From: a virus
Lineage: Duplodnaviria; Heunggongvirae; Uroviricota; Caudoviricetes
Direction: 5' to 3' (one strand)
IMG/VR virus record: IMGVR_UViG_2531839127_000024
Location: 1-23,432 of that record
Length of the DNA: 23,432 nt
The notes under the pieces: generated by a model
The model's database searches: none
The model's input: the letters and a program-made list of their open reading frames with translations, nothing else
Told to the model about the DNA's origin: nothing
Translations under genes and position numbers: made by a program
Shown: piece by piece, positions 1-11,725 of the stretch
Position numbering within the stretch: the stretch's first letter is position 1
Layout of the letters: each line of letters opens with the position of its first letter

Positions 1-996
1 TTATGGACGCATTATGGACATTCCTGACACCGGGTTAAGAGTCACAGCATCTTGTAAGAAATCCGGTGCAAAGTGTGCGTAGGTCATAGTTTGCTGAATG
101 TTAGAATGACCCAGGATGCGCTGCAATGTGATTATGTTACCTCCATTCATTATAAAATGTGTGGCAAATGTATGCCTCAAAACATGCACTGCCTGTCCGT
201 CAGGTAAATCGGGTTTTACTTCCCTGAGAGCATTGCGCACTTTGTAGTAACTGGCATTAAAAAGCCTGCCTGAATTTTTGGTCTTGATCCGTTTAATCAG
301 GTCCTGCGAAACGGGAATTGTCCTGCGCTTTCCGTTTTTAGTTTTCATAAACGTAACCATCTGGTTAATGATGTGTTCAGCTTTCAAATTAGACACTTCA
401 CTCCAGCGTCCACCAGTAGAAAGGCAGACCAGAGTTGCATTTAACTCATCACCATCAAGCATGGATAACAGCCGCGTAATCTCTTCACTGGACAAAAAAG
501 CCATTTCAGTAACAGCTTCACGTAACCGCTTAACCTCACGGAACGGGTTGTGAGAGTGGTATTCACCGGCGTCAATTAACTTGGTGAACATCCCGCTCAT
601 TATTGCCAGATGCCGATTTACGCTGGCTGGTTTAAGACCATCGTTCATCATTACAACGCGATAATCAGTTATCGTTTTCTTTGTTAGCTGGTCAGCTCTG
701 GACACTCCCATTTCTGCAAATTTGGCGATTATTGTCGTCAAACGCCCCCGTTCAATATTTCCACGCTCATGTGATTTTCCGTGATATATCCACCATCTGC
801 CTAACAACTCTGTAAGAGTTCGGCGGTCGGCTGGCTTCTCCAGCCACTCTTTGTTGTGGTAGTTAACCAGCACATGACGTTCGAATGCTTGAGCTTCACC
901 TTTAGTTTTAAATTTCCGCCTGATACGTTTTCCATCTGCACCCTGCGGTCTGACGTCCACTTCATAACGACCATCATCGAGCTTTTTAATAGACAT
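1..996 (-). CDS. int: Tyrosine integrase (P2 Int family), 331 aa
   Basis: ORF with ATG at 996 preceded by GGAGGG; C-terminal catalytic motifs LRHTFATHF and TYAHFAP (H-x-x-R ... Y) typical of tyrosine recombinases; sits next to the repressor as in P2. Stop codon is at positions 1-3, so att lies left of the window. Confidence 0.92.
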   Translation of the reverse strand: MSIKKLDDGRYEVDVRPQGADGKRIRRKFKTKGEAQAFERHVLVNYHNKEWLEKPADRRTLTELLGRWWIYHGKSHERGNIERGRLTTIIAKFAEMGVSRADQLTKKTITDYRVVMMNDGLKPASVNRHLAIMSGMFTKLIDAGEYHSHNPFREVKRLREAVTEMAFLSSEEITRLLSMLDGDELNATLVCLSTGGRWSEVSNLKAEHIINQMVTFMKTKNGKRRTIPVSQDLIKRIKTKNSGRLFNASYYKVRNALREVKPDLPDGQAVHVLRHTFATHFIMNGGNIITLQRILGHSNIQQTMTYAHFAPDFLQDAVTLNPVSGMSIMRP

Positions 997-3346: not shown

Positions 3347-3618
3347 GGATTCGTATCGAAATTGGCGAACGTTATGTCGTTACCAGTGACAGCTTTCAGT
3401 TTATTCTCCACGAGAAAAAGAGAGCGGAAAGCGGTAAAAACGCCGGTCAGGAATGGCTGGCGGTGGTTGGTTATTACCCGAAATTAAGCCAGCTCGTTTC
3501 CGGCCTGATGCATCACGATATTCTGACCGGAAGCGCAAAGTCTTTTGCTGATTTAAACGCGCAGGTTGAGCAACTCAGCAGGCGTTGTTCAGAGGCTTTT
3601 GGCTCATATGGCCGTTAA
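3343..3618 (+). CDS. Small early protein (P2 orf83 position), 91 aa
   Basis: ATG 3343 overlaps the orf82 stop; GGAGAA RBS; overlaps the A start region. Confidence 0.6.
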   Translation: MRIRIEIGERYVVTSDSFQFILHEKKRAESGKNAGQEWLAVVGYYPKLSQLVSGLMHHDILTGSAKSFADLNAQVEQLSRRCSEAFGSYGR

Positions 3619-5893
3619 AGCCTCCGGGCGTTTTGTCCCTCCGTCAGCATTTGCTGCAGGCACCGGTAAGGCGTTTACCGGTGCTTATGCATGGAACGCG
3701 CCACGCGAGGCCGTCGGGCGCGAAAGACTCCTTACACGTGACGAGATGCGTCAGGTGCAAGGTGTTTTATCCACGATTAACCGCCTGCCTTACTTTTTGC
3801 GCTCGCTGTTTACTTCACGCTATGACTACATCCGGCGCAATAAAAGCCCGGTGCACGGGTTTTATTTCCTCACATCCACTTTTCAGCGTCGTTTATGGCC
3901 GCGCATTGAGCGTGTGAATCAGCGCCATGAAATGAACACCGACGCGTCGTTACTGTTTCTGGCAGAGCGTGACCACTATGCGCGCCTGCCGGGAATGAAT
4001 GACAAGGAGCTGAAAAAGTTTGCCGCCCGTATCTCATCGCAGCTTTTCATGATGTATGAGGAACTCTGCGATGCCTGGGTGGATGCGCATGGCGAAAAAG
4101 AATCGCTGTTTACGGATGAGGCGCAGGCGCATCTGTATGGTCATGTTGCTGGCGCTGCACGTGCTTTCAATATTTCCCCTCTCTACTGGAAAAAATACCG
4201 TAAAGGACAGATGACCACGAGGCAGGCATATTCTGCCATTGCCCGTCTGTTTAACGATGAGTGGTGGACTCATCAGCTTAAAGGCCAGCGTATGCGCTGG
4301 CATGAGGCGTTACTGATTGCTGTCGGGGAGGTGAATAAAGACCGTTCTCCTTATGCCAGTAAACATGCCATTCGTGATGTGCGTGCGCGCCGCCAGGCAA
4401 ATCTGGAATTTCTTAAATCGTGTGACCTTGAAAACAGGGAAACCGGCGAGCGCATCGACCTTATCAGTAAGGTGATGGGAAGTATTTCTAATCCTGAAAT
4501 TCGCCGGATGGAGCTGATGAACACCATTGCCGGTATTGAGCGTTACGCCGCCGCAGAGGGTGATGTGGGGATGTTTATCACGCTGACCGCGCCGTCAAAG
4601 TATCACCCGACACGTCAGGTCGGAAAAGGCGAAAGTAAAACCGTCCAGCTAAATCACGGCTGGAACGATGAGGCATTTAATCCAAAGGATGCGCAGCGTT
4701 ATCTCTGCCGCATCTGGAGCCTGATGCGCACGGCATTCAAGGATAATGATTTACAGGTCTACGGTTTGCGTGTCGTCGAGCCACACCACGACGGAACGCC
4801 GCACTGGCATATGATGCTTTTTTGTAATCCACGTCAGCGTAACCAGATTATCGAAACCATGCGTCGCTACGCGCTCAAAGAGGATGGCGACGAAAGAGGA
4901 GCCGAGCGAAACCGTTTTCAGGCGAAACACCTTAACCGGGGCGGTGCTGCGGGGTATATCGCGAAATACATTTCAAAAAATATCGACGGCTATGCACTGG
5001 ATGGTCAGCTCGATAACGATACCGGCAGACCTCTGAAAGATACTGCCGCGGCTGTTACTGCATGGGCGTCAACGTGGCGCATCCCGCAATTTAAAACGGT
5101 TGGTCTGCCGACAATGGGGGCTTACCGTGAACTACGCAAATTGCCTCGCGGCGTCAGCATTGCTGATGAGTTTGACGAACGCGTCGAGGCTGCACGCGCT
5201 GCCGCAGACAGTGGCGATTTTGCGTTGTATATCAGCGCGCAGGGTGGGGCAAATGTCCCGCGCGATTGTCAGACTGTCAGGGTTGCCCGTAGCCCGTCGG
5301 ATGACGTTAACGAGTACGAGGAAGAAGTCGAGAGAGTGGTCGGCATTTACGCGCCGCATCTCGGCGCGCGTCATATTCATATCACCAGAACGACGGACTG
5401 GCGCATTGTGCCGAAAGTTCCGGTCGTTGAGCCTTTGACTTTAAAAAGCGGCATCGCCGCGCCTCGGAGTCCTGTCAATAACTGTGGAAAGCTCACCGGT
5501 GGTGATGCTTCGTTACCGGCTCCCACACCTTCTGAGCACGCCGCAGCAGTGCTTAATCTGGTTGATGACGGTGTTATCGAATGGAATGACCCGGAGGTCG
5601 TGAGGGCGCTCAGAAGCGCATTAAAACACGGTCTGAGAAGACCAAACCGTCAGCAAAGAAACGGAAACCCGTTAAAACCGCATGAAATAGCGCCATCGGC
5701 CAGACTGACCCGGTCAGAACGATTGCAAATTACCCGTATCCGCGTTGACCTCGCTCAGAACGGTATCAGGCCGCAACGATGGGAGCTTGAGGCGCTGGTG
5801 CGTGGCGCGACCGTAAATTATGACGGGAAAAAATTCACGTATCCGGTCGCTGATGAGTGGCCGGGATTCTCAACAGTAATGGAGTGGACATGA
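3608..5893 (+). CDS. A: Rolling-circle replication initiator A (761 aa)
   Basis: From ATG 3608 the protein starts MAVKASGRFVPP and is exactly 761 aa, matching P2 gpA as I recall it; contains HWHMMLF (HUH-like) motif. Track start at 3566 is TTG. Confidence 0.9.
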   Translation: MAVKASGRFVPPSAFAAGTGKAFTGAYAWNAPREAVGRERLLTRDEMRQVQGVLSTINRLPYFLRSLFTSRYDYIRRNKSPVHGFYFLTSTFQRRLWPRIERVNQRHEMNTDASLLFLAERDHYARLPGMNDKELKKFAARISSQLFMMYEELCDAWVDAHGEKESLFTDEAQAHLYGHVAGAARAFNISPLYWKKYRKGQMTTRQAYSAIARLFNDEWWTHQLKGQRMRWHEALLIAVGEVNKDRSPYASKHAIRDVRARRQANLEFLKSCDLENRETGERIDLISKVMGSISNPEIRRMELMNTIAGIERYAAAEGDVGMFITLTAPSKYHPTRQVGKGESKTVQLNHGWNDEAFNPKDAQRYLCRIWSLMRTAFKDNDLQVYGLRVVEPHHDGTPHWHMMLFCNPRQRNQIIETMRRYALKEDGDERGAERNRFQAKHLNRGGAAGYIAKYISKNIDGYALDGQLDNDTGRPLKDTAAAVTAWASTWRIPQFKTVGLPTMGAYRELRKLPRGVSIADEFDERVEAARAAADSGDFALYISAQGGANVPRDCQTVRVARSPSDDVNEYEEEVERVVGIYAPHLGARHIHITRTTDWRIVPKVPVVEPLTLKSGIAAPRSPVNNCGKLTGGDASLPAPTPSEHAAAVLNLVDDGVIEWNDPEVVRALRSALKHGLRRPNRQQRNGNPLKPHEIAPSARLTRSERLQITRIRVDLAQNGIRPQRWELEALVRGATVNYDGKKFTYPVADEWPGFSTVMEWT

Positions 5894-6378
5894 TGGCAAA
5901 AATTCACGAGGTAAAGCTGCACGCAAAATATTTCGACCTTGTACTGGAAGGAAAAAAACGCGCAGAGTTTCGGAAAAATGACCGTAATTATGAGCGCGGG
6001 GACACGTTGATTTTGCATGAATGGGTGCAGGGTGTGTTTACGGGGCGAAAGGTTGAAGCCCGGATAACAGATGTTACTGACCTGTCAGACTGGCTGGAAG
6101 ATTATGTCTTGCTAAGTATTGAGCTGCTTAATACGGGCGCATATAAGATTGTGAACTGGAAAGAACTTAGTGAACGTGGTCTGGTATTCAGAATTAATCA
6201 TGAAATTATGCATCAGCTCGGCCTTGCTGTTATGTATGAACCAGAGACGGGCTGTCTGGCGGGGCAGTGGTTGCTGCGGATGGGATATGGAACTATTCAG
6301 ATGAACAGGTGGAGCGTGCAAAGCAAAACGGGTGGCTTGGATAATGCACAGAATACCAGGCGAGATACCGCACCATAA
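5890..6378 (+). CDS. ASCH/DUF3850-like protein (P2 orf91-like N-terminus) with about 70-aa C-terminal extension
   Basis: ATGATG at 5890-5895 overlaps the A stop; GGAG RBS at 5881; N-terminus MAKIHEVKLHAKYFDLVLEGKKRAEFRK is ASCH-like. 162 aa versus 91 aa for P2 orf91. Confidence 0.65.
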   Translation: MMAKIHEVKLHAKYFDLVLEGKKRAEFRKNDRNYERGDTLILHEWVQGVFTGRKVEARITDVTDLSDWLEDYVLLSIELLNTGAYKIVNWKELSERGLVFRINHEIMHQLGLAVMYEPETGCLAGQWLLRMGYGTIQMNRWSVQSKTGGLDNAQNTRRDTAP

Positions 6379-6397
6379 AACTAAAAATATCAAGCTG

Positions 6398-6550
6398 ATG
6401 GCTATTGTTCAGCGTTTACAGCGGATTATGGTCAACGAAAATCTGACGCCCGATGAGCTGGTCGGGTGTGCCGAAATAGTTCGGGATAATTACGGGCGGC
6501 TTAACTATATCGGTCAGTCCAGAGTTGCGCCACCACCACGAAGACGATAG
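6398..6550 (+). CDS. Hypothetical small protein (50 aa), doubtful
   Basis: ATG-initiated ORF at the backbone/cargo junction; no convincing RBS. Confidence 0.2.
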   Translation: MAIVQRLQRIMVNENLTPDELVGCAEIVRDNYGRLNYIGQSRVAPPPRRR

Positions 6551-6773
6551 AGAACGCCGCCAGTCGTGAAACTTGTTTTCAGGGCTGGCGGGGTTGAACA
6601 ACGAGCGTAGCGAGGCGTTAGTTGACAGACATATTTTTACTGCGTTGGTGCCGGTTTTTGACGGTTGAAAGGAGTTAGGTTGGAGAGCTAACAACTTACA
6701 AATATTCAAAAGTAAGCATCCTGTTGCTAACATGAGGTCGATTTTTTATGTGGATGATGCAAAAAGGATAGCT

Positions 6774-7505
6774 ATGGATACTATAATCGCTTTTCTATCA
6801 CTCGCTTTTTTCGTTGCTTTCTTCATCGGGTTAATCAAGCCATCACTGGTGCGAATGCCAAACCGCAAACGTGCAAGTGCGGTTTATCTCGGAGGAGGTT
6901 TTGTATTGAGCATAATTGGTTCAATACTCTATCCAACAGAAAAAAGCCAGCCAGTTGATAAAACTGAAACATCAACCGTTGCAGAACATAAAGTCCAAAA
7001 AACATTCGAATATGGTGAAAAAACACTCAAGGAATATCGGAACGAGTCAAAGAAAACACGACACGATATTGTGAATAGTTACATTGATTTTAAGGAAGTT
7101 CCAGCCACCGCGTCAGATGCGTTTTATGCCTGCATGAGTGAATATACATTTACCAAAGATGATGAGTTGAAACTCGGTGATGTTCTTGGGTGGTGCTTTA
7201 ATGATTATGAAAATGACCCGAATTCACTAAACAATAAAATCAATCTTGATACATTTCAGAGTAATTTTAGTGGTTGGGATGGTTCTTATCGTCCATTGGA
7301 AAAACTAATTAAAGATAATATGAACGATGATTCATCTTATAAACATGTATCAACGGTATATCATCTGGTTTTGAATAAAGACCCGCATGCCATTGTGAAA
7401 ACCACGTTTCGCGGAACTAATGCTTATGGCGGAGTGGTGAAACAGACGATTGCTGCGCGTGTTGATATAAAAACTGGTAAGGTGATATCAATCATAGATA
7501 ATTGA
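6774..7505 (+). CDS. Cargo protein 1: unrecognised membrane protein, two N-terminal TM helices plus about 180-aa soluble domain (243 aa)
   Basis: AAAGGA RBS 5 nt upstream of ATG 6774 (in-frame alternative ATG 6732); hydrophobic segments IIAFLSLAFFVAFFIGLI and VYLGGGFVLSIIGSILY separated by basic loop RMPNRKRAS; AT-rich codon usage unlike the phage backbone. Confidence 0.7.
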   Translation: MDTIIAFLSLAFFVAFFIGLIKPSLVRMPNRKRASAVYLGGGFVLSIIGSILYPTEKSQPVDKTETSTVAEHKVQKTFEYGEKTLKEYRNESKKTRHDIVNSYIDFKEVPATASDAFYACMSEYTFTKDDELKLGDVLGWCFNDYENDPNSLNNKINLDTFQSNFSGWDGSYRPLEKLIKDNMNDDSSYKHVSTVYHLVLNKDPHAIVKTTFRGTNAYGGVVKQTIAARVDIKTGKVISIIDN

Positions 7506-7514
7506 TATCTTACA

Positions 7515-7555
7515 ATGCCGACGCTGAATATTTAATTGGGTGTCGGCATTTTTTG
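7515..7555 (+). terminator. Putative intrinsic terminator after cargo gene 1
   Basis: Stem ATGCCGAC (7515-7522) pairs with GTCGGCAT (7542-7549), followed by TTTTTT; loop is long (19 nt), so moderate confidence. Confidence 0.45.
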
Positions 7556-7614
7556 ACTATTAGAGCGGCAGAACCGAGATTTGTTGCGTATGAGATTAGC
7601 ACTGCGAGAATGTT

Positions 7615-8397
7615 ATGAAAATTATAAACCAACTTAAGAAGTTTGATAAGAAAAGAACGCCAGATGATGGCCGTATTAGTTTGTTATATGAAAACGCGAT
7701 TAAGTATGATATGTACTCTGTATATATTAAAGATAAAAATGATACAGAATACCTCTTTGACTGTTTGGTTGATGGGAAGATAAAGGCTTTTAAATGGGAT
7801 GATGAGGAGCGTAGATTTCATATAAGTTCATGCTTGGATATTTCTGAGGTTACGCCTGATTCTTTTTTTGGTGTTTACTACTACCGTGCGCATGAGTTGC
7901 GATTTAACTCTTTAAATGATTTAACATTTTTAAGGGAGTTGTTCTTTAGAGTAAAGTCTAATTATGAAAATATAAAGTTTAGTCGTGAAAAATATATTTA
8001 TCGACAGCAAAAAAAAGAAATAACTGATGTGATGTTTGTTCTCTCAACGATTATAAGAATGTATCGTGAATGGGATGCTCAAACTGTGTTTAGTGAGTTT
8101 TCAATAATGACCGAAGTCGCTGGTAGTTTATGGGTATACCATGACGATAAAAACAGGATGCGTAAAGAGCTTCGTTTATGCCTGAATTCTCTTGTTCAGA
8201 ATGGAGATCTTGTTGAAACAAGTAGTGGATTTAGGCCAACAGGAAAGGCACTGAACACAATATCTACATTCAATAAAGATGAGGTGCGGTACAGAGAGAA
8301 TTTGAGTACTCAGAAGAAAATGTTTTGGGCTACTTTTTTCGCAGCAGTCGGCGGCGTAGGAAGTATGATTGCAGCTATAATAGGGCTTCTAAAATGA
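7615..8397 (+). CDS. Cargo protein 2: unrecognised protein with cytoplasmic N-domain and single C-terminal TM helix (260 aa)
   Basis: ATG ORF; very AT-rich; C-terminal hydrophobic segment FWATFFAAVGGVGSMIAAIIGLL preceded by KK; no catalytic motif recognised. Confidence 0.7.
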   Translation: MKIINQLKKFDKKRTPDDGRISLLYENAIKYDMYSVYIKDKNDTEYLFDCLVDGKIKAFKWDDEERRFHISSCLDISEVTPDSFFGVYYYRAHELRFNSLNDLTFLRELFFRVKSNYENIKFSREKYIYRQQKKEITDVMFVLSTIIRMYREWDAQTVFSEFSIMTEVAGSLWVYHDDKNRMRKELRLCLNSLVQNGDLVETSSGFRPTGKALNTISTFNKDEVRYRENLSTQKKMFWATFFAAVGGVGSMIAAIIGLLK

Positions 8398-8557
8398 GCC
8401 AACAAAATCGTATGATGAAGTATTGAGTGAAAAGCATTCTTTATATGCATTATTTTGCATGCAACATATGCTATACATTCTAGCTATGAATTGTCAGACG
8501 TGGCAGTACTTCTGTATGGTAATGCAACTGCATTAAAACCGCCCCATGAAGCGGGCG

Positions 8558-8576
8558 GGCGAGGCGGGGAAAGCAC
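8558..8576. other. cos cohesive-end site (19-nt P2-type cohesive end GGCGAGGCGGGGAAAGCAC)
   Basis: Exact 19-mer that I recall as the P2 cohesive end, followed by G/T-rich packaging-region sequence, located just downstream of Q as in P2. Confidence 0.65.
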
Positions 8577-8718
8577 TGCGCGCTGGCGGTGGTGCTGATT
8601 TTATTTTTTCAGCGTCTGAGCGCGTCGTGAAGGCGCTTAGTCTGCCCGTTGAGGCGTTGGTGTGTCTGCGGGGTGTTTTGTGCGGTGGTGAGCGTGTGAG
8701 GGCGTGATGACGGGGTGT

Positions 8719-8740
8719 AAAAAAGCCGCCCGCAGGCGGC
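8719..8740 (-). terminator. Intrinsic terminator of the P-Q operon
   Basis: On the minus strand GCCGCC-TGCG-GGCGGC hairpin followed by TTTTTT, 6 bp downstream of the Q stop. Confidence 0.7.
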
Positions 8741-8745
8741 GATGT

Positions 8746-9780
8746 TCAGCCGTTGTCAGTGTCCAGTGAGTAGTTTTTAAAGCGGATGACCTCCTGACCG
8801 AGCCAGCCGTTTATCTCGCGGATCCTGTCCTGTAGCGGGATAAGCTCATTACGGACAAAGACCTTTGCCACTTTCTCAATATCACCCAGCGACCCGACGT
8901 TCTCCGGCTTGCCGCCCATCAACTGAAAGGGGATACGGTGCGCGTCCAGCAGGTCAGCGGCGCTGGCTTTTTTGATATTAAAAAAATCGTCCTTCGTTGC
9001 CACTTCACTGAGCGGGATAATTTTAATGCCGTCAGCTTTCCCCTGCGGGGCATAGAGAAACAGGTTTTTAAAGTTGTTGCGGCCTTTCGACTTAACCATG
9101 TTTTCGCGAAGCATTTCGATATCGTTGCGATCCTGCACGGCATCGGTGACGTACATGATGTATCCGGCATGAGCGCCATTTTCGTAATACTTTCGGCGGA
9201 ACAGCGTGGCCGACTCATTCAGCCAGGCAGAATTAAGGGCGCTGAGATATTCCGGCAGGCCGTACAACTCCTGATTAATATCCGGCTCCAGCAGGTGAAA
9301 CACGGAGCCGGGCGTGAAGGCTGTCGGCTCGTTGAAGGACGGCACCCACCAGTAAACATCCTCCTCCACGCCACGGCGGGTATATTTTGCCGGTGAGGTT
9401 TCCAGTCTGATGACCTTACCGGTGGTGCTGTAACGCTTTTCCAGAAACGCATTACCGAAAACCAGAAAATCCAGCACAAAGCGGCTGAAATCCTGCTGGG
9501 AAAGCCACGGATGCGGGATAAATGTCGAGGCCAGAATATTGCGTTTAACGTAAATCGGTGAGCTGTGATGCACGGCAGCACGCAGGCTTTTTGCCAGACC
9601 GGTAAAGCTGACCGGTGGCTCATACCATCTGCCGTTACTGATGCACTCGACGTAATCCAGAATGTCACGGCGGTCGAGTACCGGCACCGGCTCGCCAAAG
9701 GTGAATGCTTCCATTTTCGGGGCGCTGGCAGTCATTGTTTTCACCGCTGGCTGCGGTGTTTTCCCTTTTTTCTTACTCAT
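8746..9780 (-). CDS. Q: Portal protein (344 aa)
   Basis: Length identical to P2 gpQ; ATG overlaps the P stop (ATGA); position next to cos. Confidence 0.9.
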   Translation of the reverse strand: MSKKKGKTPQPAVKTMTASAPKMEAFTFGEPVPVLDRRDILDYVECISNGRWYEPPVSFTGLAKSLRAAVHHSSPIYVKRNILASTFIPHPWLSQQDFSRFVLDFLVFGNAFLEKRYSTTGKVIRLETSPAKYTRRGVEEDVYWWVPSFNEPTAFTPGSVFHLLEPDINQELYGLPEYLSALNSAWLNESATLFRRKYYENGAHAGYIMYVTDAVQDRNDIEMLRENMVKSKGRNNFKNLFLYAPQGKADGIKIIPLSEVATKDDFFNIKKASAADLLDAHRIPFQLMGGKPENVGSLGDIEKVAKVFVRNELIPLQDRIREINGWLGQEVIRFKNYSLDTDNG

Positions 9781-11552
9781 CAGTAAAACTCCAGAATGGT
9801 GGATGTCAGCGGAGTGCTGATACCGGCGGTGAGTGGCTCATTTAACAGGGCGTGCATGGTCGCCCAGGCGAGGTCGGCGTGGCTGGCTTCCTCGCTGCGG
9901 CTGGCCTCATAGGTGGCGCTGCGTCCGCTGCTGGTCATGGTCTTGCGGATAGCCATGAACGAGCTGGTGATGTCGGTGGCGCTGACGTCATATTCCAGAC
10001 AGCCACGGCGGATAACGTCTTTTGCCTTGAGCACCATTGCAGTTTTCATTTCCGGCGTGTAGCGGATATCGCGCGCGGCGGGATAGAACGAGCGCACGAG
10101 CTGGAACACGCCGACACCGAGGCCGGTGGCATCAATACCGATGTATTCGACGTTATATTTTTCGGTGAGTTTGCGGATGGATTCAGCCTGGGTGGCAAAG
10201 TCCATGCCTTTCCACTGGTGACGCTCAAGTATTCTGAATTTGCCACCGGCCACCACCGGCGGTGCCAGCACCACGCATCCGGCGCTGTCGCCACGGTGTG
10301 ACGGGGCGTAACCAATCCATACCGGACGTGAGCCGAACGGATTGGCGGCAAACGGAGCATAGTCTTCCCATTCTTCCAGCGTGTCGACCATGCAGCGTTG
10401 CAGCTCCTCGAACGGGAACACCGACGCCTTGTCGTCAACAAATTCACACATGAACAGGTTTTTAAAATCGTCGGCGCTGTTTTCACGTTTGAGCTGCTCA
10501 ATGTCGAACAGCGTGCAGCCGCCTTTCAGGGCGTCCTCAATGGTGACAATCTGCCGCCACTGGCCGTCCGCACAGAGAAGCCCACCGGCAAGGGCGTTAT
10601 GACTGACGTCGATTTCCACGCGTTCGGCGGCGCTGGCGCGTCCCCGGTTAAACAGTTCACCCGACCAGAACGGGTAGGCGTCGTGCGCCAGTGTGGACGG
10701 GGTGGAGAAATAGGTCGAGCGCAGGTGACTCTGTGAGGCCATACCTGATGCCACCTTACGCAGTACCTGAAAATTCGGGATCCAGAAAATCTCGTCGACG
10801 TACAGGTCGCCGTTATGGCTCTGCGCGGTGTTGGAGTTGGTGCCGAGAAAAATCAGTTTTGCGCCGTTATTGCCCAGGACAATTGGGTCACCGGTCAGGT
10901 CAACGTCAACCAGCCGGGCAAAGGCGATGATGTATTCGCGGAACACATACGCCTGCGTTTTACTGGCCGACAGAAAAATCTGGTTATGACCGGTTTTCAG
11001 GGCGCGCAGCAGCGCCTCGCGGGAAAAATAAAACGTCGCGCCAATCTGGCGGGATTTCAGGATATCGCGGATGCGGTGCTCAAGCCCTGCGCGATACCAG
11101 TGCAACTGATATTCGAAAGACTGCTCAAAGAAAATCTGCTCCAGCTTTTCGATGGCCTCGTCACTGAAAAAATTCTTTTTCGGTTTGCGACGCCCGCCTT
11201 TGTTGCGGTTAGCGACGTTCGGATTAAGGTCTGCCTCGTTGCCGGTCTGACTGTAACGGTTGACCCGTGCCAGTCGTTCAATCTGGCGTCCCAGCAGGTC
11301 AATTTCCTTGAAGTCACCGCCGGTTTTCTGCGGTTTGATGATGAGCTGGGTCAGCCGCGCTTCCAGACTCATTTCGACACGGCTGATGGGGGCAACGCTG
11401 TCCCAGCCGTCGCGCTGTTTCCAGCTCTGCACCGTCGGGCGTTTCATCTGCAACATGGCGGCAATCTGCGGCACGGAAAACCCCTGCCAGTACAGCAGCG
11501 CCGCCTGACGACGCGGGTCGTGTAAAAGAGTGGTGTCTGTGGTGATGGTCAT
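9780..11552 (-). CDS. P: Terminase large subunit/ATPase (590 aa)
   Basis: From ATG 11552 (GAGGGA RBS) the protein starts MTITTDTTLLHDPRR and is 590 aa, matching P2 gpP. Track start 11582 is TTG. Confidence 0.9.
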   Translation of the reverse strand: MTITTDTTLLHDPRRQAALLYWQGFSVPQIAAMLQMKRPTVQSWKQRDGWDSVAPISRVEMSLEARLTQLIIKPQKTGGDFKEIDLLGRQIERLARVNRYSQTGNEADLNPNVANRNKGGRRKPKKNFFSDEAIEKLEQIFFEQSFEYQLHWYRAGLEHRIRDILKSRQIGATFYFSREALLRALKTGHNQIFLSASKTQAYVFREYIIAFARLVDVDLTGDPIVLGNNGAKLIFLGTNSNTAQSHNGDLYVDEIFWIPNFQVLRKVASGMASQSHLRSTYFSTPSTLAHDAYPFWSGELFNRGRASAAERVEIDVSHNALAGGLLCADGQWRQIVTIEDALKGGCTLFDIEQLKRENSADDFKNLFMCEFVDDKASVFPFEELQRCMVDTLEEWEDYAPFAANPFGSRPVWIGYAPSHRGDSAGCVVLAPPVVAGGKFRILERHQWKGMDFATQAESIRKLTEKYNVEYIGIDATGLGVGVFQLVRSFYPAARDIRYTPEMKTAMVLKAKDVIRRGCLEYDVSATDITSSFMAIRKTMTSSGRSATYEASRSEEASHADLAWATMHALLNEPLTAGISTPLTSTILEFY

Positions 11553-11725
11553 GAATCCCTCGCCGTGATGAATACACGGCAAGGCTACTGAGTCGCGCCC
11601 CGCGATTCGCTAAGGTGCTGTTGTGTCAGTGATAAGCCATCCGGGACTGATGGCGGAGGATGCGCATCGTCGGGAAACTGATGCCGACATGTGACTCCTC
11701 TAATCACTATTCAGGACTCCTGACA

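Follow-up and report, generated by a model that had tools for sequence, protein, structure and literature searches.

Positions 1 to 23,432 of the virus record IMGVR_UViG_2531839127_000024, the window analyzed here, form a P2-like (Peduoviridae) Escherichia coli prophage that carries two AT-rich cargo genes between the gene for the replication endonuclease gpA and the portal gene. Judged by its sequence, the product of the first of these (cargo protein 1; positions 6774-7505, plus strand) is a full-length orthologue of Orf97 from coliphage 186. The reading that we favor, at a probability of roughly 0.55, is exclusion of P2/186-like phages: tethered to the inner membrane and facing the periplasm, cargo protein 1 would hamper delivery of the incoming genome after adsorption.

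Orthology to coliphage 186 Orf97

Cargo protein 1 is 76% identical to 186 Orf97 (AAC34191.1) across 100% of the latter, both proteins being 243 amino acids (aa) long, and 97% identical to the "Orf97" of Peduovirus P22H4. The match to the PHROG family phrog_3403 covers residues 1 to 243 of 243 (E = 2.8e-147), and homologues of about 243 aa are spread throughout the Enterobacterales. This orthology was not recognized in an earlier reading of the sequence alone (the original prediction), which had pointed to superinfection exclusion on the grounds of a periplasm-facing domain. By analogy, that proposal agrees with GenBank record U32222, in which 186 Orf97 is annotated "expression from plasmid blocks 186 infection." The 186 record is the only functional record in the family, and from this homologue we infer an exclusion function for cargo protein 1; we infer further that the block would fall at DNA entry and that the prophage copy would be expressed in lysogens.

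Orf97 was therefore known already as a family with a recorded exclusion phenotype, of which cargo protein 1 is a further member. What is modestly new here is a structural and topological model of Orf97 and its link to a large unannotated extracytoplasmic family. The 186 SOS operon that holds orf97 was reportedly described by Brumby et al. in 1996 (Virology 219:105). PMC5322425 cites Brumby et al. 1996, the source paper for 186 Orf97; literature searches on Orf97 otherwise returned passing mentions only, with no topology, fold, or mechanism in the searchable literature. Cargo protein 1 matched no Pfam, NCBIfam, or PADLOC model even at E ≤ 1 and no PDB sequence, and a BFVD search gave no named relative.

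Cargo protein 1 and 186 Orf97 share the two-helix transmembrane (TM) hairpin, the cysteines, the sequence motifs, and a right-end position between gpA and cos. They differ in context: 186 has tum, p95, and a LexA box on a 186-type backbone, whereas the prophage has a P2-type backbone without these elements and with the t95a hairpin truncated. The order gpA, orf97, portal is common to 186, P22H4, and a Serratia prophage, and cargo 1 lies in the same gpA-portal interval, a membership feature of the Orf97 family. Elsewhere, orf97 lies beside ogr in a Photorhabdus P2-like element and in the order tum, orf97, reverse transcriptase in a 186-like element. The deposited P22H4 "Orf97" coding sequence (LR595869; L002 4133-4732) is only 200 aa long; it starts 44 codons late and thereby loses the whole TM hairpin. 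The tblastn match there begins at locus position 4001.

Membrane hairpin and soluble domain

The original prediction described two hydrophobic helices separated by a short basic loop, placed that loop in the cytoplasm by the positive-inside rule, and put the C-terminal domain outside the inner membrane. The helices and loop were borne out by the hydropathy scales and by the homologues, and the topology is supported in silico by a charge bias that runs through the family. The parts of the gene and protein, with helix boundaries from AlphaFold2 (AF2) and its confidence score (pLDDT), are as follows.

6774..7505, plus strand: cargo 1 coding sequence, ATG at 6774 and stop at 7503-7505, 243 aa, 186 Orf97 orthologue (phrog_3403)
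6780..6836, plus strand: TM helix 1, residues 3-21; predicted orientation, periplasm to cytoplasm; AF2 helix 2-21
6837..6872, plus strand: basic loop KPSLVRMPNRKR, residues 22-33, predicted cytoplasmic, charge +5 with zero acidic residues
6873..6929, plus strand: TM helix 2, residues 34-52, rich in glycine; predicted orientation, cytoplasm to periplasm; AF2 helix 31-52
6936..7001, plus strand: variable disordered linker, residues 55-76, pLDDT <50 at 56-73, indel-rich and poorly conserved
7002..7238, plus strand: helical subdomain, residues 77-155, HdeA/HdeB-like fold, holding C120 and C141
7239..7502, plus strand: C-terminal alpha+beta module, residues 156-243, two helices followed by four antiparallel strands

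Helix 1 has a mean Kyte-Doolittle (KD) score of 2.69 and a summed Hessa free energy (dG) of -3.5, and helix 2 has a mean KD score of 1.81 and a summed Hessa dG of +2.0 (up to +3.3 in homologues). No further segment of the protein comes near these values (KD maximum, 0.48). The loop quoted in the original prediction, KPSLVRMPNRKRAS, is an exact match to residues 22 to 35. In a set of 43 homologues reaching down to 51% identity, lysines or arginines average 4.6 in the loop and acidic residues 0.02; the corresponding means for the 15 residues after helix 2 are 2.0 and 2.2, a pattern that chance does not explain. The tail preceding helix 1 consists of only two residues in these homologues (MD, ME, or MS) and is acidic or neutral. 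In the AF2 model, the helices at residues 2-21 and 31-52 pack as a hairpin. Helix 2 is predicted to be an uncleaved signal anchor, matching the single TM segment of relatives that carry a zinc ribbon.

Two other classes of N terminus were considered and rejected. A cleaved signal peptide at helix 1, raised in the original prediction as the opposing case, does not fit: the N terminus is acidic (MD) with no basic n-region, no AxA motif is conserved, and the basic stretch comes after helix 1. As for a lipoprotein, the N terminus (MDTIIAF...) has neither a basic n-region nor an L-x-x-C lipobox.

A second line of evidence comes from the cysteines. C120 (7131-7133) and C141 (7194-7196) are invariant in the Orf97 clade, and among 100 distant representatives that have the helical subdomain, 72 carry both, 26 carry neither, and 2 carry one (Fisher p ~1e-21, not corrected for phylogeny). 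Where the cysteines are lost, F/A, Y/A, or F/G contact pairs replace them. In the AF2 model they lie symmetrically on two helices (111-127 and 134-147), each 7 residues from the intervening loop. Because the two residues are kept or lost together, they point to a structural disulfide and hence to an oxidizing compartment; the C120-C141 bond probably staples the helical subdomain.

The charge bias, the coupled cysteines, the lipoprotein and zinc-ribbon relatives (see below), and the HdeA/HdeB-like fold make a periplasmic location of the C-terminal domain well supported in silico. We consider an inverted or single-pass topology very improbable; in it, only helix 1 would cross the membrane (N-out, C-in), helix 2 would be peripheral, and the cytoplasm would hold the soluble domain. 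The Hessa values of helix 2, which are marginal, would suit such an arrangement. However, the relatives with a lipoprotein signal, or with a zinc ribbon and one TM segment, put the same domain outside the cytoplasm, and the coupling of the cysteine pair, the neutral to acidic stretch after helix 2, and the predicted packing of the two helices as a hairpin all speak against it.

The hairpin has features of its own. Within it, the loop is more conserved than the helices: P23, V26, M28, and R31 of the loop are invariant among homologues, as are G19 and L20 at the adjoining end of helix 1. The hairpin motif GLIKP...R/K-rich (window 6774-6965, residues 1-64) also matches the N termini of two PHROG families of unknown function, phrog_28655 (E = 0.002) and phrog_23546 (E = 0.026), and the hairpin recurs in distant relatives with other middle regions (P0208, P0212, and P0232). 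The hairpin has the look of a module that can be reused, possibly with a role beyond anchoring.

The AF2 model, built from 43 sequences, has a mean pLDDT of 85, rising above 90 across residues 77 to 243 (a domain of about 165 aa). The original prediction had called the C-terminal domain Asn/Asp/Lys-rich and about 180 aa long. The enrichment proved mild (10.6% K, 9.0% D, and 7.4% N over residues 55-243), and this C-terminal part, which includes the linker, measures 189 aa. Its helical subdomain resembles the fold of HdeA and HdeB, periplasmic acid-stress chaperones (PDB 1bg8 and 4xvv). This likeness is one of predicted fold, at 5 to 16% identity with no sequence-level match, so that cargo protein 1 falls outside the Pfam HdeA family, and the HdeA-like unit is one subdomain of a larger tethered protein. 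The disulfide of HdeA joins C18 and C66 and is not equivalent to C120-C141.

The C-terminal module (about the last 80 aa) is cystatin/NTF2-like and has no Pfam entry. Its matches to a designed cystatin fold (4r80), Bacillus subtilis YqzG (2lyx), latexin (2bo9), and VirB8 periplasmic domains are generic fold matches at 6 to 13% identity. In contrast to those folds, the motif FSxWDGS...SY.H...G.N is specific to the unannotated family of cargo protein 1. In full, the motif reads FSxWDGS...IK..M.D..SY.H..T.Y...T.F.G.N..G, and fourteen positions (F165, S166, W168, D169, G170, S171, K180, D185, S188, Y189, H191, T194, N216, and G219) are at least 84% conserved in about 140 representatives, forming a polar and deeply conserved set. 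This depth of conservation suggests a conserved envelope ligand.

Cassette, expression, and mode of action

The signals around the coding sequence are as follows.

6705..6733, plus strand: candidate sigma-70 promoter, weak and of low confidence, TTCAAA-17 nt-TAACAT, 8/12 matches, read by eye
6764..6768, plus strand: Shine-Dalgarno sequence AAGGA, 5 nt 5' of the ATG (AAAGGA in 186 and P22H4)
7514..7554, plus strand: intrinsic terminator, 12-bp stem followed by U6, predicted to end the cargo 1 transcript ahead of cargo 2

We place the start at 6774 because phrog_3403 aligns over residues 1 to 243 of 243, nearly all homologues are 243 aa long, and RefSeq gives the same start in E. coli strain E70; together with the Shine-Dalgarno position, these points rule out a longer in-frame open reading frame (ORF) from 6732. 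The roughly 50 bp 5' of the ATG are a leader conserved with 186 and P22H4. DNA homology to 186 begins 48 bp 5' of the ATG, within the t95a terminator, whose left arm is lost in the prophage. The terminator 3' of the gene folds at -21.6 kcal/mol (z = -5.5), and 0 of 200 shuffled sequences were as stable. Cargo 1 was present, always on the chromosome, in 84 of 5,426 complete E. coli genomes, only 6 of which carried cargo 2 alongside it. The strong intervening terminator and this rare co-occurrence rule out a two-gene system, and cargo 1 is thus an independent single-gene cassette.

The slot it occupies is a documented defense hotspot in P2, where P2 keeps old and tin (gpA-gpQ locus; PMC9122126; Rousset et al. 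2022). G+C content (GC) across both cargo genes (window 7000-8500) is 33 to 38%, compared with 50 to 62% in the flanking replication and structural genes, and the cargo is therefore recently acquired foreign DNA. With old and tin, cargo 1 (36 to 38% GC versus 50 to 58% in the backbone) shares its slot, its AT-richness, and the form of a single-gene cassette. Whereas Old and Tin work in the cytoplasm once DNA has entered, cargo protein 1 is predicted to face the periplasm and is unrelated to them in sequence.

In the mechanism we propose, the gpA-portal hotspot carries the gene as a self-contained cassette made up of the leader of about 50 bp, the ORF, and its own terminator. Inserted into the inner membrane as a two-helix hairpin, the protein would have both of its ends on the periplasmic side and expose to the cytoplasm no more than the 12 residues of the basic loop. 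Its two-part periplasmic domain would hang on a flexible tether some 20 residues long, and within that domain the HdeA-like subdomain would pack on the cystatin/NTF2-like module with its deeply conserved polar surface. Superinfecting P2/186-like phages would then be stopped at the cell envelope, the most likely route being that the periplasmic domain binds an envelope or tail-tip component needed for genome delivery after adsorption.

The exposure of only about 12 residues to the cytoplasm argues against a sensor of intracellular infection cues. Together with the lack of a partner gene, it makes an abortive-infection sensor or effector unlikely. We give little credence to such a toxic membrane effector, in which the hairpin would be triggered by infection to permeabilize or depolarize the inner membrane and the cell would die. 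Small TM proteins are common as effectors in hotspot defense systems (PMC9122126), helix 2 is glycine-rich, and loop conservation exceeds what simple anchoring calls for. Against this, the cassette holds a single gene without a sensor partner (cargo 2 being rare beside it and set off by the terminator), nearly all of the mass of the protein is a well-folded extracytoplasmic domain, and no PADLOC match was found. More broadly, none of the known anti-phage defense families in PADLOC-DB v2 matched at E ≤ 1.

The timing of action allows another reading, which we regard as possible but clearly less probable than exclusion by the lysogen. With the same topology, the protein would act in lytic development, guarding a cell that is already committed against additional injections or lysis from without, in the manner of T4 Imm and Sp. 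Its source after induction or infection would then be, again tentatively, the SOS operon in 186 and, in the prophage, read-through transcription of the early gpA operon. According to the GenBank record, the p95 operon of 186, which LexA represses, has orf97 after tum and past a partial terminator; the prophage lacks the left terminator arm, with homology to 186 starting just upstream of the ATG, and it has no clear promoter, while gpA, the ASCH gene, and a 68-aa ORF upstream all lie on the same strand. On the other side, the hotspot is where P2 keeps old and tin as exclusion genes expressed in the lysogen (PMC9122126), and cargo 1 has its own terminator, a conserved leader, and the weak promoter candidate at 6705-6733.

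A less probable alternative is that cargo 1 is an envelope fitness factor (a moron), encoding a membrane-tethered periplasmic chaperone or binding protein, with the block to 186 a side effect of envelope perturbation. The likeness to HdeA is in fold only, and its disulfide is placed differently; only P2/186-like prophages and phages have the full-length protein, encoded at cargo positions; and two of the three distant loci inspected lie beside an integrase or an IS91 transposase. These observations argue against this reading.

Several points nevertheless weigh against an exclusion factor expressed by the lysogen. The 186 phenotype is a one-line GenBank note on plasmid expression of a membrane protein, for which an overexpression artifact is possible. 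All of the topology evidence is in silico, and the hydrophobicity of helix 2 is marginal, yet usual for the second helix of a hairpin. A consensus promoter scan (threshold, 9/12) of the 223-bp spacer at 6551-6773 found none, no LexA-box-like site lies upstream of cargo 1, and a tblastn search with Tum over the window gave a best E value of 0.84. With no convincing promoter, LexA box, or tum, expression of cargo 1 in the lysogen is conjectural, and orf97 in 186 is SOS-induced rather than lysogen-constitutive according to the GenBank record. Finally, conservation of the C-terminal module extends to very distant phyla, which is unusual for a recognizer of fast-evolving phage parts and may point to a general envelope function.

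Control of the 186 type, by tum and LexA, was rejected for cargo 1, both elements being absent. Cargo 1 thus stands outside a LexA-controlled tum-orf97 SOS operon, and the Serratia and Photorhabdus copies also lack tum. The tum/LexA operon is a trait of the 186 context and is not required for membership in the Orf97 protein family.

The classical superinfection exclusion (Sie) proteins of the envelope include T4 Imm and Sp, P22 SieA, HK97 gp15, lactococcal Sie2009, Streptococcus thermophilus Ltp, and T5 Llp. These are small phage proteins, each encoded by a single gene at a moron or cargo position; they are anchored in a membrane, are directed toward the periplasm or the cell exterior, and have no cytoplasmic sensor. 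Cargo protein 1 is like them in being, on in silico evidence, an accessory phage gene product with a membrane anchor and an extracytoplasmic domain. It differs in combining an HdeA-like with a cystatin-like fold and in lacking a lipobox, which Llp, Cor, and Ltp have, as do some of its own distant relatives. No homology to the described Sie families (Imm, Sp, SieA, SieB, gp15, Ltp, and Llp/Cor) was detected in Pfam, NCBIfam, or PADLOC at E ≤ 1.

The surrounding prophage genes run in the order gpA, ASCH gene, 68-aa ORF, two cargo genes, portal, and the main features are listed here.

1-996, minus strand: integrase
3566-5893: gpA replication endonuclease, preceded by early genes
between gpA and the cargo genes, plus strand: ASCH/DUF3850 gene, then a 68-aa ORF
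7615-8397, plus strand: cargo gene 2, 260 aa, one hydrophobic tail at the C terminus (MFWATFFAAVGGVGSMIAAIIGLLK)
8746-11582, minus strand: portal and terminase (portal, 8746-9780), followed by late genes

The 3 kb searched at window 5800-8800, which includes the cargo locus, is 100% identical to E. coli strain E70 (NZ_CM173937), and parts of it match 2,160 of the 5,426 E. coli genomes. Directly 3' of gpA, and overlapping its end, the gene at 5857-6378 (plus strand) encodes a DUF3850/ASCH domain, a putative RNA-binding fold, together with DUF7415, and is conserved in many P2-like prophages. A minus-strand ORF at 6416-6733 (105 aa) matches phrog_33524 (E = 3e-44) and overlaps the plus-strand 68-aa ORF of RefSeq (6345-6551); probably, one of these calls is spurious and has propagated across databases. 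The minus-strand ORF was considered as a divergent neighbor of cargo 1 and set aside, RefSeq having the plus-strand ORF in its place despite the phrog_33524 match.

Traces of 186 flank the cassette as well. Upstream of cargo 1, window 6553-6621 is 87% identical to 186 sequence downstream of orf97 (L001 4741-4809) and contains the inverted repeat CCGCCAG...CTGGCGG. The extreme right end of 186 is matched by window 8517-8556. Around orf97, the conserved blocks stand in a different order in 186 and in the prophage, which suggests recombination junctions flanking the cassette.

Cargo protein 2 matches phrog_7611 over its full length (E = 5e-164) and is encoded at 33 to 38% GC. Neither Pfam, NCBIfam, nor PADLOC gave a match, and none of 50,697 phage records had a tblastn match; a tail-anchored defense or toxin function of its own is conceivable. 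Other elements carry different genes after orf97: a 186-like element encodes a 515-aa reverse transcriptase (RVT_1; L008 4783-6330, minus strand), and the Serratia P2-like prophage encodes a 322-aa protein with no Pfam match (L004 5755-6723, plus strand). This variation in cargo between hosts is consistent with a modular hotspot of independent cassettes.

The wider module family and its implications

A profile search of 1.84 billion representatives yielded 2,908 relatives (clusters at 50% identity), and architectures were tallied for the 141 module-bearing proteins among the best 148 of these relatives. At least one TM segment lies upstream of the module in 123 of the 141; 44 have a two-TM hairpin like that of Orf97, and 24 have a cytoplasmic zinc ribbon and one TM segment. 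A lipobox was scored in 6 representatives, one of which (P0246) looks like a false call. Eighteen were scored as having no TM segment; by eye, four or five of them have short lipoprotein signals (P0161, P0172, P0191, P0220, and the truncated P0173), and the others mostly look like fragments. No convincing cytoplasmic version of the domain was found among the representatives inspected.

The module also occurs nearly alone, in short proteins of 110 to 170 aa (P0218, P0269-P0385) that consist of a signal anchor, or a zinc ribbon and one TM segment, followed by an 80-aa WDGSH module. Module-only relatives are 60 to 90% identical across Planctomycetota, Nitrospirota, Deltaproteobacteria, Methylotenera, and a bin labeled Lokiarchaeota; identity of this order across phyla is unusually high for an unannotated domain. 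Two of the three distant loci inspected adjoin mobility genes, as mentioned above.

We raise, tentatively, the possibility that the module family is a new and widespread class of envelope-level phage exclusion factors whose target would be a conserved component of the envelope instead of a variable phage protein. As part of the same speculative reading, mobile elements of many phyla would deploy the module on interchangeable anchors (hairpin, zinc ribbon and TM segment, or lipoprotein signal).

For the window itself the result is modest, cargo 1 being an orthologue of a described phage gene. For Orf97, known since the 1990s by a one-line phenotype to which neither topology, fold, nor mechanism had been attached, it supplies a refutable model: a hairpin with N-out/C-out orientation, an HdeA-like subdomain stapled by a disulfide, and a cystatin-like module. 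Cargo 1 is easy to test, being one gene of 732 bp whose challenge phage is known. Nearly all studies of the P2 hotspot deal with cytoplasmic defense systems, and a periplasm-facing, single-gene exclusion factor would widen that picture. Because Orf97 is tied to a very large unannotated extracytoplasmic family, a mechanism for it would annotate thousands of proteins, and if the exclusion-class reading is true, Orf97 would be the first experimentally tractable member of a family of about 2,900 clusters that has no Pfam entry.

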